The notes beneath the pieces were generated by a model. That model worked only from the letters and a program-made list of their open reading frames with translations. It had not been told where the DNA came from and made no database searches. The position numbers and the translations under genes are program-made. 64,000 nucleotides of DNA from a virus (lineage: Duplodnaviria; Caudoviricetes): IMG/VR virus record IMGVR_UViG_3300032265_002598, positions 96,001-160,000 of that record. One strand, given 5' to 3'. Shown one piece after another: positions 33,986 to 39,504 of this stretch; the first letter of the stretch is position 1; the number at the start of each line of letters is the position of its first letter.

Positions 33986-34013
33986 ATTATAGCTTGATGG
34001 AAGCCAGAGTCAA
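33986..34013 (-). promoter_or_regulatory. Sigma70-type promoter for ssb
   Basis: TTGACT-16 nt-TATAAT on the minus strand. The -35 box overlaps the TGA stop of the dnaE C-half. Confidence 0.7.
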
Positions 34014-35641
34014 GTCTTAGGAATATACGTCTTTTCGACTATGAACGAATCACCAGACTTGGCTCTATTACCTTTGATAATGATAACATTACCATCAAAC
34101 AAAATGTTACGATAAGCTTTATATGCTTCCGGAAAGAATACAACAGAATCTATTACTCCCGTGCCATCACTCATGGTAACAAATGCCATCTCTTGACCAG
34201 GGGTTTTGCCAGATTTAGTTTTGGTAACACCTACACTCTCTATCTCTCCACATAGAATAATATTATCTTTAAGAGTAGTATTCTTAAAATCTTTACAAGT
34301 TGTATTAGTCATTGTAATATCATACATATCAACCTTAGAACAAGTAATACTACAGCCCAGGAAAGCATCCTCCGCATCAGATATCCAATCTGGATTATCT
34401 TCTAAAGAATATGGAGGTTTATTATAACTATTAATTAGATCAAGTATAATACTTTTTCTGTTTTTATTAGATTTACCATTATGATACAAATCATATAAAG
34501 CATCTCCTATAGACTTATATTGATACAGGTTAGCTAGTATGAAATCCGATTCTTTTTTTGTTAATTCAGATACTAATCCAAACTCAAATAACATCCCGGT
34601 TCTTTGTTTACCCAAATAAGATATAGCACCACTTTGAATTAAAGCTTTGGCTGATGTAGAATTGATATTTATCAAGACTTTCATAAGCATCTCAACCCAA
34701 TTCATAGTATCAAAATCTAGTTTTTTATCTGTTTTAATTTTAATCAACTTATCAAAAACAGACTGTCCAAAACCCTTAATATCTGTTAATCCAAAATATA
34801 TCTTATTGTTTTTTAGAATAAACAATTGGTTTAGATTTCTAATATCGGGTATACAAACAGGAACATCCATCTCATTAGCATTTTGAACTAATTCTTTGAT
34901 CTCTGCTTTAGGATCAATTTTATCTTTAGCAAATCTTAAGTACGCTGCAAAAAAGATTTTTGGAAAGTGAGCTTTTGTATATGCTGATAAATAACTATTA
35001 ATCGCATAACTAACAGCATGAGATTTATTAAAGGAATATCTTTGAGATTTTTCGATCCATCCAAAAATTTCTTCAGCTTGAGAGGTAGCTACTGTACCAA
35101 CTTTTTCTGTTCCTTCTAAAAATTTAATCTTAATCTTAGCCATCTCTTCTGGCTTTTTCTTACCGATTGCTTTTCTCAACATATCTGCTTCTTGAAGATC
35201 AAAGCCAGCTACTATTTTAGCAATTTCCATAGCTTGTTCTTGATAAATCATTTCGCCATATGTTCCTTTTAGAATGGGCTCTAAAGAAGGATGATAGTAA
35301 TCTACAGACTCTTGACCATTCTTTTTATCTATAAAATGGTTAGAAACTGATTTACCATCTCTAAAAGCTTCCAAACATCCTGGTCTCATAATACTAATTA
35401 AAGCAGAAAGTTGTTCAATATTTTCTGGCTTTAATTTTTTGGCCATAGATTTACCTAGTCTAGACTCCAATTGGAAACACCCCTTTGTATTTCCATCCGA
35501 AATTAAATCCCAAGTCTTCTGACACTCTAAACTAATCTCTTCTATTTTTGGATTAAATTTAAGAGTCATTCTGTCTTTGTCTTCATGTTCAGACAGAATA
35601 TCAAAAGAACAACCGCAACTATATTGAAATTTTTTAGGCAT
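34010..35641 (-). CDS. dnaE: DNA polymerase III alpha, C-terminal half (fingers/thumb, HhH, OB fold)
   Basis: GCFQLES, ISIMRPG, IYQEQ, DMLRKAIGKK, YSFNKSHAVSYA, FGLTDIKGFG, C-terminal OB fold. Confidence 0.92.
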   Translation of the reverse strand: MPKKFQYSCGCSFDILSEHEDKDRMTLKFNPKIEEISLECQKTWDLISDGNTKGCFQLESRLGKSMAKKLKPENIEQLSALISIMRPGCLEAFRDGKSVSNHFIDKKNGQESVDYYHPSLEPILKGTYGEMIYQEQAMEIAKIVAGFDLQEADMLRKAIGKKKPEEMAKIKIKFLEGTEKVGTVATSQAEEIFGWIEKSQRYSFNKSHAVSYAINSYLSAYTKAHFPKIFFAAYLRFAKDKIDPKAEIKELVQNANEMDVPVCIPDIRNLNQLFILKNNKIYFGLTDIKGFGQSVFDKLIKIKTDKKLDFDTMNWVEMLMKVLININSTSAKALIQSGAISYLGKQRTGMLFEFGLVSELTKKESDFILANLYQYKSIGDALYDLYHNGKSNKNRKSIILDLINSYNKPPYSLEDNPDWISDAEDAFLGCSITCSKVDMYDITMTNTTCKDFKNTTLKDNIILCGEIESVGVTKTKSGKTPGQEMAFVTMSDGTGVIDSVVFFPEAYKAYRNILFDGNVIIIKGNRAKSGDSFIVEKTYIPKT

Positions 35642-36335
35642 GAGATGTTGATTGAAATGAGTCCTTAAACTTAATCTTATTTCCTAGGTTACGATGCAGT
35701 CTCATAAAACGAACCAGAATTTCTGCACAATCCTTAACATCTTTAAGAGCATCATGGGCACCTTCTTTATTAATACCAAGATAATCTCTTAGAGTATCTA
35801 AAGAAAGATTTTTTAGATCACTATTGTTTTCAAACCAATAGAAAACTAAATTCATAATATCTAATACATCTCTTGGATAAAAAATATCACTTCTATCTTC
35901 CTTATTAGTATTACCATATTTGCGACTAAGTCTATCAATAATTGGTAGGTCGAACCTATTAATATTATAGCCAGCGGCAATAGGGGCACTAAATTGGCTC
36001 TTCTTACTAGACCTGCTATGGTGCATAGTCAAATAATTTGTAAATAACTTCCATGATTGATCTTGAGAGGGATATTTCTTCCACTCTGCTAAAATAGACT
36101 CTTTTGAAGAACCTCTTACTTTAGCATGAAAATCTAATATGTCTGTAGTATATTGGTAATCTTCATTATTTGCCAAAACTTCTGGTTTAAAAAAGATATT
36201 AAATTCAGAATTTGGAACAATCTCTAATTTCAATGGATCGATAATCACTGCGGCAATCTGAACAGGACTACAAGACTTTGGGTCAGAGCCATCTGTTTCA
36301 AAATCAAACACACAAATTTTGTTATAGTTAATCAT
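35634..36335 (-). CDS. DEDDh 3'-5' exonuclease (DnaQ/epsilon-like)
   Basis: VFDFETDG (Exo I), AGYNINRFDL (Exo II), HDALKDV (Exo III). Confidence 0.88.
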   Translation of the reverse strand: MINYNKICVFDFETDGSDPKSCSPVQIAAVIIDPLKLEIVPNSEFNIFFKPEVLANNEDYQYTTDILDFHAKVRGSSKESILAEWKKYPSQDQSWKLFTNYLTMHHSRSSKKSQFSAPIAAGYNINRFDLPIIDRLSRKYGNTNKEDRSDIFYPRDVLDIMNLVFYWFENNSDLKNLSLDTLRDYLGINKEGAHDALKDVKDCAEILVRFMRLHRNLGNKIKFKDSFQSTSHA

Positions 36336-36532
36336 TCGGTGGTCTCAACCTCTACTTCTATTAATGGTAGAACCTGAATCTTTTGTTCTGGATTGTCTAA
36401 TCTAGCAGCATTTATAACTGTACAACAACTAATTCTTTGTTCTTCAGTCTTAGTATACTTATTAAGTTCAAATGTAAATACCTTACCAATAGCTAAATCC
36501 ATAAATTTAATCTTTTGGGTTGCCATAATCAA
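36332..36532 (-). CDS. Small hypothetical protein (66 aa)
   Basis: Fills the gap exactly, with 4-nt overlaps at both ends. Confidence 0.6.
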   Translation of the reverse strand: MIMATQKIKFMDLAIGKVFTFELNKYTKTEEQRISCCTVINAARLDNPEQKIQVLPLIEVEVETTE

Positions 36533-38422
36533 TCTCCTTTTGATAAAATGTCTTGAATAGTCATGATCTTATCTAACATTGCCACGCCAAGAATATCAAA
36601 CTTGATAATACCTAACGCTTCTAGGTCTTGCATCTCCATGCCAGCTATAAGTTGGTCATTCTTTGAATCATATACCATAGGACACAGAGTATTTAATGGT
36701 TGAGCACTAATTGCAATACCAGCCGCATGTTTAGACTGGTTAGACTTAGTACCTTCTAATCTAATAGCCTGTTCAAACCGTTTGGCAAGTGGTCCCTGCA
36801 ATTCATTTTTTTCATCTATATAGCACCATTCTTTCAGTTTATCTGGCTCATTTTCTAAAGCCCACCGAATAATAGATGCTTCGCCAGTTTCTTCTTTCAT
36901 TTCTTGAAGATCATCAGCAATTTTAGCTTCATCTGGAATACTTTTAGTAATCTTATTCATTTCATCAAAAGATATATTACCATATACTCTTAATACATCC
37001 TTAATAGCTCCACGACCCTTAATAGTATTAAATGTAATCATTTGGGAAACCTTATCAGCCCCATAACACTGTTTAATATATTCAATTACATTTTCTCTTT
37101 TGTTGATAGGTACGTCTACATCAATATCAGGCATAGAGATGTGATCTTTACTATTTCGTCCAGCATTGTAAAATCTATCAAATAATAGACCATATTTAAT
37201 AGGATCAATACTAGTAATACCGATTAAATAAGAGACCAAACAACCGGCAGCACTTCCTCTTCCCGGTCCCGGAAGCCAATTATTTTTTCTAACATAATTC
37301 ACAATATCTTGTACAATTAAAAAATAGCTAGAAAGATCTGCTCCTTGTAGAACCTCAAGTTCATACTTAATTCTATTAACATAATCTTGTTGCTTATCTT
37401 TGTCTATTATATTAGCAATTTTATCTCTCCATCCATTACGACATAATTGTCTGAGATATTCATCTGGATTAGCTCCGTCCGGACAAGGGAATGGAGGTAA
37501 ATGTGGCTTATCTAAGATATTATAATTTTCACATAATGAATCTACTAATTTGGTATTTTCCATTTCTTCTTCAGTATGAAAATGATCCATTTCTTCTGGA
37601 GATAAGATATGGAAGTTGTCAGATGTAAAAAAGCACCCAAGAGGCACTTCCTCGTCGTTACTAATCTTCCTGCTGATCTCTGGGAAGGTCGTTTTTAAAT
37701 TATTACAGAGAAGCACCCTTTGATCTACAGCATCCTCCTTACGGCAATAGTGAGCGTCTGGTGTGGAGATGATTTTTGTGTTGGTCATTTTGGCCAAATC
37801 TCTCATAGCACCAGTCAAAACTGTTTGGATAGGAGAATTGGCCGAATCCATTAATTGTGCTTCTAAAAAGAAATTTTCTTTACCAAAAACATCTTTAAGT
37901 TTACCAATTTGATCAATACCTATATTTTTCCAGTCGCCAAGTAATTGATTATCAACACTAATCTTATCTGCCAAATAGGATCCAGCATGACCACAAAATC
38001 CAATAATATTATTATTACAATATTGTGCAAGAGTCTCTATATTTAGTCTTGGTTTATGATAAAAATGATCGGGTTGATTAGACTCAGAAACAATTCTAAT
38101 AAGACTCTTCCATCCCTCGTAGTTCTTGGCTAGAATAACAAAGTGAGTTAGGTCTTTATTTTCTTTTGTTTTAATCTTAGGATCTTGATCACAAATATAA
38201 ATCTCACACCCTAAAATAGGTTTAATACCCTTCTTCTTCATTTCTGTATAAAATTTAACTGATCCAGCAATATTACCATGATCAGTCAATGCGCAAGAAG
38301 TTGCACCTATTTCCTGACATCTTTCAGTAATAGTTCTCGGTTGCGATAGTCCATCCAAAAGTGAGTACATAGCCCACCTAAGAATGGACATGCAGAGGCA
38401 CATATCCTCTAGTCATGTCCAT
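36529..38422 (-). CDS. dnaE: DNA polymerase III alpha, N-terminal half (PHP plus catalytic palm), interrupted by a 10-nt coding gap at 38371-38380
   Basis: SD AAGGAG, then ATG 38422 gives MDMTRGYVPLHVHS, then TAGGTGGGCT, then MYSLLDG...TDHG...GCE...DAHY...GRGSAAG...MPDIDVD...KFDILG. 627 aa if the 10 nt are skipped. Confidence 0.9.
38371..38380 (-). other. 10-nt insertion (TAGGTGGGCT) inside the PHP HxHSxYSLLDG motif; candidate bypass element or micro-intron
   Basis: Read directly from the sequence. It contains an in-frame TAG and shifts the frame by +1. The mechanism is inferred. Confidence 0.75.
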
Positions 38423-38463
38423 ATCTAATTTTCTCCTTATTTCGTTGTTCTAACCAAAAATAT

Positions 38464-39504
38464 TTATACGGTGCCGGGTGCTTTGTAATGACCTATACTA
38501 TAGCCGGGAGCTTGATACTTGTCAATGACAGCTTTCATCCCAGTTGTGTCTATATCATGTTTAACTTGTTCGCACTTTGTCATACATTGGTCTTTAGCTG
38601 TTAGTTGACCATCTCTATATTCTGTTAATGGTTGTATTGAACTATTAGCAAATGTACTTTTCCCAAAGTGGCATAACTTACTGCATTTCCAACTTTTATT
38701 TAGTTGTGGCTTTTGAGTATTCTTTATAGTCTCAAATTTTTGTTTCAACATGATTTCTGTTTTGTATAGATCTGTTTTATCAAAACAAATAGTAAATGCT
38801 CCACCATCATTGATGAAATTAATAGATATCATTACGTGTTCGATCTCTGGGTACATATGCTGAATAGCATAGTGATATATTCTTAATTGAGGATCATTTT
38901 GTAATTTTTCTAAAGTTTTTTCTTCTCCAGTAGCCCAGTCTAATCTTCGTCCTGTTTTCCAATCAATAACTTCTAGAGTATTGTTATTGACTTTGGTAAT
39001 AAGATCAATAGTGCCTTTTATAGCAAGATTTCCTTCAAGGATTCCATCTTTGGTTTCATATCGGTATGATGACCAGGGTTTCTTAATCTCAAGATCAAAG
39101 CGTTGTTCTGGCTGAACGATATGTCTATTCCTAGGATCAAACATACCCTTATTATATTCTAAAGCTTTATTAATCCATGCATGACAATCTTTATGATCTT
39201 TTGGTTCCCAAACATGATGAGTGAACTGAGAAGTATAATATTCATATACTTGATCAGTTATTTTTTTGATACTATAATTATTAATGTCTACTTTTCCCAC
39301 AACATCATCCTCAAAAATTGGACTATTGTTTTGGGTATTTAGTTTAATAAATGCTAAGATTTCTAAAGCCTTATGACAAATAGTTCCTTTGTCTGCTTTT
39401 TTATTTGATGGAGATCTTAAACCAAGGATATACTCAAAAAAATATTGCTGTGGACACATAGAGTGTGTGCCATAAGAACTACTTCTTAGATATGTAATTA
39501 TAAT
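38464..39504 (-). CDS. PD-(D/E)xK nuclease, Cas4/AddB-like with Fe-S Cys ligands; probable ATT start
   Basis: LRSSSYGTHSMCPQQY, GTIDLI...EVIDWKTG, C-terminal CSKLC...C. No ATG/GTG/TTG occurs in frame upstream of 39459. ATT at 39504 has AAAGGA 8 nt upstream. Confidence 0.8.
   Translation of the reverse strand: MIITYLRSSSYGTHSMCPQQYFFEYILGLRSPSNKKADKGTICHKALEILAFIKLNTQNNSPIFEDDVVGKVDINNYSIKKITDQVYEYYTSQFTHHVWEPKDHKDCHAWINKALEYNKGMFDPRNRHIVQPEQRFDLEIKKPWSSYRYETKDGILEGNLAIKGTIDLITKVNNNTLEVIDWKTGRRLDWATGEEKTLEKLQNDPQLRIYHYAIQHMYPEIEHVMISINFINDGGAFTICFDKTDLYKTEIMLKQKFETIKNTQKPQLNKSWKCSKLCHFGKSTFANSSIQPLTEYRDGQLTAKDQCMTKCEQVKHDIDTTGMKAVIDKYQAPGYSIGHYKAPGTV

Follow-up and report, generated by a model that had tools for sequence, protein, structure and literature searches.

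A candidate programmed short bypass at a conserved recoding site in phage dnaE

The dnaE gene of a tailed phage (IMG/VR virus record IMGVR_UViG_3300032265_002598; the window analysed here is the 64,000-nt stretch from position 96,001 to position 160,000 of that record) is interrupted after its fourteenth codon by 10 nt that open with an in-frame stop codon and fall within the metal-binding motif of the PHP domain. This is a conserved recoding site in phage dnaE, and the 10 bases are, with high probability, the coding gap of a programmed short-range translational bypass, that is, of a ribosome hop. A first-pass annotation of the window had described a 10-nt gap with an in-frame TAG after codon 14, and this placement is exact (positions 38380-38371), as is its description of the odd N-terminus, MCLCMSILRWA, that the open reading frame (ORF) caller had given to the gene. 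The called frame (36529-38403) follows the downstream frame only and starts MCLCMSILRWAMYS; the ORF holds both the PHP (Pfam match, 5e-31) and the DNA_pol3_alpha (4.6e-73) domains. The leader codons that precede the gap on the minus strand are ATG GAC ATG ACT AGA GGA TAT GTG CCT CTG CAT GTC CAT TCT. The features of the interrupted 5′ end are as follows.

38433-38438, minus strand: Shine-Dalgarno sequence AAGGAG of the leader, with a 10-nt spacer before the ATG at 38422
38378-38422, minus strand: leader mini-ORF of 14 codons (MDMTRGYVPLHVHS) plus TAG, carrying the first two His ligands of the PHP domain
38381-38383, minus strand: putative take-off codon TCT (Ser14), the last leader codon
38371-38380, minus strand: putative coding gap TAGGTGGGCT, 10 nt, with TAG at 38380-38378, then GTGGGCT, and the putative landing triplet GCT at 38373-38371
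38368-38370, minus strand: putative resume codon ATG (the Met of HVHS-M-YSLLDG), which begins ATG TAC TCA CTT TTG GAT GGA
36529-38370, minus strand: remainder of the DnaE N-terminal protein (PHP plus palm/NTPase), in the frame read from the resume codon

Recurrence and grammar of the gap

With the downstream ORF as query, 80 related loci (64-99% identity), a sample not chosen for the gap, were retrieved from IMG/VR. An insert is found at exactly the same codon boundary in 23 of these, far more often than by chance, and the remaining 57 are uninterrupted and read PLH[VCLA]HS[MHT][YFHM]SLLDG. Deletion of the gap restores HxHS/xYSLLDG in every variant; in the window it restores HVHS/MYSLLDG, which is the sequence of uninterrupted relatives (exact match to PLHVHSMYSLLDG in loci L028, L030, L032-34 and L036). 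Furthermore, the alignment of an uninterrupted relative with Pol III alpha of Thermus aquaticus (FAHLHQHTQFSLLDG) is free of gaps, and the earlier claim that removal of the 10 nt yields a canonical PHP motif holds. Our reading of the PHP ligands is based on this alignment and on the known PHP motifs; the other ligand motifs in the downstream ORF of the window are presumably LLDG, DHGN, GCEIY, HFVIL, CGHAG and PDAHY. Pattern scans in which only GTCCAY-TCY-stop and the following YSLLDG codons were fixed returned 75 IMG/VR contigs and 44 metagenome contigs with an insert, with one false hit in each set and with assemblies partly shared; both scans together hold 56-62 distinct sequence contexts and 31 true gap types. 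The first-pass annotation had left it as a question whether inserts recur at the HxHS/xYS junction, and they do, in 23 of 80 loci and in about 60 distinct variants.

An assembly error is ruled out because the independent assemblies come from about 60 sample identifiers. A defective single lineage with a dead gene is ruled out by the number of independent assemblies together with purifying selection: the ratio of nonsynonymous to synonymous substitution (dN/dS) in the downstream ORF is 0.027-0.045 at dS values of 0.41-1.41 in clades sharing one gap, with similar values in uninterrupted controls, and 0.035-0.045 in the clade that has the window's own gap. The host genome of the window is a complete phage genome of 201,067 bp with terminal repeats, in which we found DNA_pol3_alpha once and neither a family A nor a family B polymerase. 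Thus, dnaE is the only DNA polymerase gene of this phage, and, as the sole replicative polymerase, its product must be made; the first-pass annotation, which had thought a dead gene unlikely, was right in this.

The gaps share a common grammar. By type they measure 6 nt (one type), 8 nt (two), 9 nt (seven), 10 nt (ten), 11 nt (nine) or 12 nt (two), and they cover all three frame classes. Among 46 gap carriers, the codon from which the ribosome would take off is TCT (31) or TCC (15), with no other Ser codon in use; at the same Ser, uninterrupted relatives use TCT and TCC and also TCA, TCG, AGT and AGC. The first gap triplet is always a stop codon (TAA in 17, TAG in 14 and TGA in 1 of the gap types). 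The last is TCT, TCA or TCC in 23 of the 31 types, ACT in five and GCT or GCC in three, its middle C being invariant in our alignment (A1). The window belongs to the GCT group, and its GCT matches the take-off TCT at positions 2-3 only. The resume codon specifies M, H or T in uninterrupted relatives, and in gap carriers it is ATG, CAT or CAC, with one GAA. At the short end of the series, locus L061 reads TCT-TAA-TCT (a 6-nt gap), which is the classic stop-hop layout.

Codon variation indicates that the leader is translated and under amino-acid selection, because its residues are kept while its Leu and Pro codons vary. Among 46 distinct relatives the leader follows the pattern M[DG][MV]xxxYxPLHVHS, in which Y-x-P-L-H-V-H-S is invariant; its Leu codon is CTG in 12, CTT in 11, TTA in 12, TTG in 5 and CTA in 6 of them, and its Pro codon is CCT or CCG. 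An alternative genetic code with TAG as a sense codon was considered and rejected: leader and remainder lie in different frames, each of the three stop codons is used, and the window has no suppressor tRNA.

RNA structures and the proposed hop

Three helices, which we call P1, P2 and P3, are predicted around the gap.

38414-38422, minus strand: P1 5′ arm ATGGACATG, start codon included
38384-38392, minus strand: P1 3′ arm CATGTCCAT, the reverse complement of the 5′ arm, which stops one base before the take-off codon
38410-38406 with 38398-38394, minus strand: P1 inner stem, AGAGG with CCTCT
38359-38379, minus strand: P2, the gap stem-loop, AGGTGGG (38379-38373) with CTCACTT (38365-38359) and loop CTATGTA (38372-38366)
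38349-38389, minus strand: P3, an alternative helix, GTCCATTC (38389-38382) with GGATGGAC (38356-38349, Asp-Gly-Leu codons)

P1 is predicted by RNAalifold unaided, and it is present in all 46 gap carriers and in none of 32 uninterrupted relatives. Across the 46 sequences 98.8% of its cells are paired, and two pairs show compensatory changes; the A or G of the third codon covaries with CAT or CAC (GC in 28, AU in 15 and GU in 3 sequences), and the single GTG start codon pairs with CAC. The covariation score of P1 was reached by no shuffle, and slid controls pair at 24-48%. In the window the hairpin folds with −19.0 kcal/mol; the 46 gap carriers average −17.8 kcal/mol (z −5.3), compared with an average of −2.3 (z +0.2) for the 32 uninterrupted relatives. 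In the minimum-energy fold of the window, AGA (38423-38425) also pairs with the take-off UCU (38381-38383), which lengthens P1 by 3 bp.

P2 is formed by the stop codon and the rest of the gap, which pair with the next Tyr-Ser-Leu codons. Its mean run of consecutive pairs is 6.6, compared with 4.57 ± 0.22 (maximum 5.29 in 1000 permutations) when gaps were permuted against downstream partners, and a swap test agrees. The covarying pairs include GTGA/TCAC, CGA/TCG, AGAGAAT/ATTCTCT, GAAT/TAT-T and GGGT/TAC-T, with as many as five pair types at one position and a stem length of 3 to 9 bp. The apical loop is mostly 6 nt long and is made up of bases 2 and 3 of the landing triplet, the whole resume codon and a single base more; the loop in the window likewise contains the two bases and the resume codon. 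Only N-C-N is kept in the landing triplet, because its first base closes the P2 stem and its last two lie in the loop. A Shine-Dalgarno role for the AGGTG/GTGA motif of the gap was also considered and was dropped as unnecessary, though conceivable, the motif being explained by P2 pairing with TCAC. Duplexes between the gap and the 3′ tail of 16S rRNA are modestly better than shuffles for most types, and only TAGGTGATCT and TAGGTGAATCT stand out.

P3 encloses P2, and its strand GTCCATTC is made up of part of the P1 3′ arm and two bases of the take-off codon. P3 and P1 are mutually exclusive because both use the strand GUCCAU. The motif GATGGAC occurs in 56 of 68 gap carriers compared with 2 of 35 uninterrupted relatives, and the synonymous sites of the P3 block are frozen only in gap carriers. 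Hitch-hiking by co-conversion, as a cause of the conserved block TTGGATGGAC, was rejected since the third-codon positions nearer the gap are free to vary. The combined P3 and P2 hairpin forms in 48 of 49 variants (z −3.7 to −5.4). Under constrained folding the P1 state averages −26.2 and the P3 state −24.0 kcal/mol, and in the window the two are isoenergetic (−26.8 and −26.9 kcal/mol). No known RNA family was found by Rfam between 38200 and 38600 at E ≤ 1.

These features are consistent with the following course of events. Before translation, P3 would hold the 3′ arm of P1 and leave the start codon free. Ribosomes would start at the leader ATG, translate 14 codons and halt when UAG enters the A site, peptidyl-tRNA-Ser then sitting on UCU in the P site. 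At this point the 3′ arm of P1 would lie in the E site and the exit channel, its 5′ arm being already outside. P1 probably closes behind the ribosome and in doing so draws the mRNA forward by roughly one gap length, as has also been proposed for the 5′ stem-loop of T4 gene 60. For P1 to close completely, the mRNA would have to move about as far as the exit path is long, and gap lengths of 6-12 nt, most often 10-11, agree with this. Meanwhile P2, which resembles the take-off stem-loop of gene 60 that forms in the A site and hides the stop codon within it, could shield the stop codon from release factor. The tRNA would then leave UCU, the mRNA would slide by 10 nt, and the tRNA would re-pair on GCU, whose counterpart in most relatives is a Ser codon. 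Decoding would restart at AUG-UAC-UCA, giving one protein with the metal-binding motif HVHS-MYSLLDG and the junction peptide GYVPLHVHSMYSLLDGLSQPR. A single mechanism of this kind, with detachment of peptidyl-tRNA-Ser from UCY and renewed pairing on the final gap triplet, could serve for all variants.

The first-pass annotation had itself proposed a bypass that takes off from the TCT before the stop codon and lands on the last gap triplet, and this proposal is strongly supported by the grammar of the 31 types, by selection on the leader and by covarying structures that occur only with the gap. Variants that close off frameshifting, readthrough or re-initiation also favour it. The hopping tRNA would read UCU and UCC at take-off, and since it would land on UCA too, an anticodon with U34 is suggested. 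ARAGORN predicts eight tRNAs in the phage genome (19936-23403 and 195784-195860), for Lys, Glu, Ser-ACU, Asn, Gln, Thr, Arg and Ile-UAU; none of the eight reads UCN or any stop codon. It also predicts a phage tmRNA outside the window (G000:C1:195237-195586) with the tag GKTSLALAA.

We also suggest, more tentatively and as something that may well prove wrong, that the locus is a self-contained, portable RNA device of about 100 nt, which makes ordinary bacterial ribosomes hop over 6-12 nt, needs no long nascent-peptide signal for this and is driven by a bistable P1/P3 switch. In such a device the ribosome would melt P3 and reach the stop codon, whereupon P1 would snap shut, pull the mRNA and block the next initiation.

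Several observations weigh against a programmed bypass. The landing triplet of the window, GCT, fits the Ser anticodon at just two of three positions, and the leader of 14 codons leaves little room for a nascent-peptide signal of the gene 60 type. Burial of the start codon in P1 would lower initiation, and P2, at whose top the landing site is placed, has to melt before decoding can go on. In L061, the variant with the 6-nt gap, P2 and P3 are nearly absent. Conservation of the gap relative to 4-fold sites is suggestive only, as recent transfer of the cassette described below may confound it, and most pattern-derived sequences were preselected with GTCCAY and TCN fixed, which makes for a narrower sample. 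In the conservation of the leader, constraints from the RNA and from the PHP domain overlap. Finally, an endonuclease gene of the type that accompanies the gap in other lineages was not found in the genome of the window, not even as a remnant.

Other accounts of the locus, all of them improbable, have to be set beside the bypass. In the first, which we regard as very unlikely, two products would be made: the 14-residue peptide would be released, the rest of DnaE would be re-initiated near the resume codon, and the polymerase would either work without two His ligands or be complemented by the free peptide. The clade of the window does have ATG as its resume codon, preceded by the purine-rich AGGTGG, and this phage family already tolerates DnaE in two polypeptides. 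However, 20 of the 46 variants (CAT or CAC at the resume codon) have no ATG, GTG or TTG at that codon or back to the preceding in-frame stop, and independent initiation is therefore impossible in these. The first-pass annotation had taken AGGTGG for a Shine-Dalgarno-like site before the ATG; it is better explained as a strand of the covarying P2 stem, and in most variants the match to the anti-Shine-Dalgarno sequence is weak. Nor do two products account for the Ser-like landing triplet, for a take-off codon that is only TCY, or for the exact HxHS/xYS spacing kept in every variant.

The second account, also highly improbable, is conventional recoding at TCT-TAG, by a +1 or −1 frameshift or by readthrough, with 2-4 extra residues left in the PHP motif. 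The +1 frame is open across the gap of the window (SILRWAMYS), and a 5′ hairpin near a shift site can stimulate +1 shifts (PMC5009743). However, the gaps fall in all three frame classes and three mechanisms would be required: those of 6, 9 and 12 nt are in frame, yet open with a stop codon, and those of 8 and 11 nt would need the opposite shift. Moreover, TGA appears in the +1 frame of two 10-nt gaps, TAAGTGAACT and TAGGTGATCT, the residues that would be inserted are not conserved, and the spacing from the His ligands to the Asp of LLDG is gap-free relative to Thermus aquaticus Pol III alpha.

Removal at the level of RNA, for which the chances are slimmer still, would excise the 5′ strand of P2 between an internal and the apical loop and ligate the ends (a micro-intron or a cut-and-rejoin reaction). 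Both borders of the gap do lie in predicted single-stranded spots of the conserved structure. Against this, the P2 stem varies in length from 3 to 9 bp and Rfam has no match at the locus. We know of no bacterial or phage system that takes 6-12 nt out of an mRNA. The micro-intron, which the first-pass annotation had offered as its alternative, also predicts neither the obligatory stop codon at the start of the gap nor the Ser-like triplet at its end.

A mobile endonuclease cassette

Comparison of the relatives shows that in many separate lineages a cassette of about 100 nt has taken the place of the usual 5′ end of dnaE.

38359-38458, minus strand: approximate extent of the cassette, a stretch that the closest uninterrupted relative (L005) lacks

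In a maximum-likelihood phylogeny of the N-terminal DnaE protein, the distribution of gap carriers needs at least nine gains or losses that are forced by well-supported branches. In uninterrupted relatives the dnaE start overlaps, as ATGA, the stop codon of an upstream PD-(D/E)XK nuclease gene; gap carriers have an extra spacer, and AAGGAG is found in nearly all of them (alignment A1) and in no uninterrupted relative. When the window is compared with L005 by blastn, the alignment stops at 38459 and resumes at 38358, with about 100 nt in place of about 35 nt. Similarly, in L019, 895 nt that include an HNH endonuclease gene take the place of 79 nt in its uninterrupted sister, L021. Identity breaks cleanly at the cassette borders, and 3′ of the gap the extra similarity between gap carriers fades within 30 nt.

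An endonuclease ORF of 238-253 aa lies between the nuclease gene and the leader in L019 (at 2221-2982), L039, L077, L089, L094, L114 and L134, and its stop codon overlaps the 5′ arm of P1. Its matches in PHROG are to endonuclease, HNH endonuclease and endonuclease VII families (E values of 1e-22 to 1e-13), and it also matches HNH endonucleases of cultured phages. Remnants in other lineages retain the last 80, 51 or 36 residues of the endonuclease. The cassette fits the layout of a free-standing homing endonuclease, with an ORF beside a disrupted conserved site and a patchy distribution that is independent of phylogeny.

The gap is probably there for a selfish reason. It interrupts the most conserved DNA of the gene, a typical target of homing endonucleases, and would shield carriers from cleavage, as in T4 mobA and gene 60. 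The first-pass annotation had suggested that the gap may be a switch that gates phage replication, a role that we find unsupported; the evidence points to a homing-endonuclease cassette whose insert is tolerated because it would be bypassed. As the cassette is mobile, and as a separate DnaQ-like exonuclease gene could render PHP activity unnecessary, the gap might conceivably be an inert scar, left where the cassette damaged the 5′ end of a gene with a dispensable PHP N-terminus and sharing its features through recent common descent; we consider this extremely unlikely, as the leader amino acids are kept through synonymous change, compensatory changes keep P1 and P2, clades with one gap have diverged to dS 0.4-1.4 with gap and helices intact, and in many variants the downstream ORF has no usable start codon.

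Paralogous HNH-type endonucleases with a similar C-terminal motif occur at other intergenic sites of the replication module (L037:717-1157, L050/L051:1549-1923, L094:1025-1396 and L103:99-758). The one in L037, which belongs to the clade of the window, sits between the dNMP kinase and nuclease genes, where the window has 38 nt.

Known bypass systems and genome context

To our knowledge, efficient natural programmed bypass has so far been found in T4 gene 60 and its homologues, in the byps of yeast mitochondria and in one Streptomyces phage candidate. Relative to these, the dnaE family would be an unrelated and much shorter case, and our literature search found no report of a coding gap in dnaE; DnaE goes unmentioned in a 2025 paper on aquatic jumbo phages. 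For the T4 gene 60 and MobA system, Huang 1988 and Bonocora 2011 are said to be the sources. Gene 60 carries a 50-nt translational bypass within a MobA homing-endonuclease element (bioRxiv 2022.08.31.505936), and pairing of the mRNA on the exit side has been described as a driver of bypassing (bioRxiv 2024.12.09.627546; PMC5009743).

In our best reading, the dnaE gap is a short-range equivalent of gene 60 without homology to it. In both, the take-off codon stands directly before a stop codon, the two lying in the 5′ strand of a stem-loop, with a second stem-loop 5′ of the take-off site. The putative landing triplet of dnaE is a Ser codon, like the take-off codon, in 23 of the 31 gap types, although GCT in the window agrees with TCT at positions 2-3 only, and decoding would resume at the adjacent codon as it does in gene 60. 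However, the host gene here is dnaE and there the large subunit of a topoisomerase, no sequence homology is seen, and the gap is 6-12 nt compared with 20-50 nt. Take-off in dnaE would occur at codon 14, where no long nascent-peptide signal is possible. Unlike in gene 60, the 5′ hairpin of dnaE contains the start codon, the landing and resume codons lie in the loop of the take-off stem-loop with its 3′ strand coding, and the alternative helix P3 would make the element bistable.

The likeness extends to MobA. In both systems an endonuclease gene of HNH type adjoins the interrupted gene and overlaps its start, and both show the order of endonuclease, overlapping start, short homologous stretch and bypass cassette. 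In both, the bypass cassette often persists where the endonuclease has decayed or gone, and the distribution among related phages is patchy. In contrast to MobA, the dnaE endonuclease lies between genes and does not split a gene. The cassette endonuclease matches generic phage HNH and endonuclease families, and in none of the records listed does a MobA annotation appear. If our interpretation is correct, the cassette provides a second link between homing endonucleases and the way in which such gaps arise.

Other systems are instructive for particular features. In the gene for the terminase of Hau3, a Streptomyces phage, 10-nt inserts have been proposed to be passed by UUA-mediated bypassing (PMC10732093). 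As in dnaE, an insert of about 10 nt lies in a gene needed for the lytic cycle, frameshifting alone would leave disruptive residues, and a 5′ stem-loop and a nearby landing codon are the proposed signals. However, the slow A-site codon in Hau3 is a rare sense codon, UUA, that depends on host tRNA availability, whereas in dnaE it is a stop codon; no link to an endonuclease is described there, and the comparative support is a handful of genes compared with about 60 covarying variants for dnaE. Synthetic stop-hops, with a single amino acid specified by 9 nt, are known from E. coli (Weiss et al., 1987, via PMC5009743). Peptidyl-tRNA crosses an adjacent stop codon to a matching codon in these constructs, and L061 has the same layout. 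The synthetic hops are engineered, of low efficiency and without dedicated structures, whereas the dnaE hop would span up to 12 nt, cross frames and come with conserved helices. A natural stop-hop was not known at the time of a 2016 review (PMC5009743), and L061 has the layout that the review considered absent from nature. Finally, the mitochondria of Magnusiomyces capitatus have 81 byps inserts of 27-55 nt (Lang, 2014, via PMC5009743). These are also short bypassed inserts in essential genes, and their landing codons are often two-thirds matches like GCT and ACT in dnaE; they differ in being mitochondrial and, as described, largely context-independent, with an unused sense codon in the A site.

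The roughly 60 natural variants are a ready mutational series in gap length, stop codon, landing codon and three helices. If the tentative view of a portable device is true, homing endonucleases own a general, transferable way to break essential catalytic motifs without killing, and the first natural stop-hops are open to mechanistic study. There is also a consequence for annotation: gene callers truncate or mis-start such genes, as in the window, and a short insert with a stop codon in a catalytic motif should not be written off as a sign of a pseudogene or of faulty assembly.

The polymerase is itself split over 34010-38422 on the minus strand, into an N-terminal protein of about 613 aa and a C-terminal protein of 543 aa. 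The genes that follow the N-terminal protein are these.

36332-36532, minus strand: 66-aa ORF without a family match, 3′ of the DnaE N-terminal protein
35634-36335, minus strand: DnaQ-like exonuclease, between the two DnaE parts
34010-35641, minus strand: DnaE C-terminal protein (fingers, HhH and OB; 543 aa), the last of four genes

The order of the four genes is identical in every relative examined, and the same split of DnaE is present in L005, L010, L021, L025, L043, L054, L064, L069 and L077. No intein or intron signal was seen at the split.

Upstream of dnaE, the PD-(D/E)XK nuclease gene on the minus strand has a probable start 15 codons 5′ of the called ATG at 39459 (region 39459-39504). 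A second gap at the 5′ end of this gene was considered and rejected; what is found is an in-frame N-terminal extension, IIITYLRSSSYGTHS, which is kept in all relatives. The extension starts with ATG in some of them and with ATT (39504-39502) in the window and many others, where the ATT overlaps the stop codon of the kinase gene as ATTATAA and looks like a translationally coupled AUU start.

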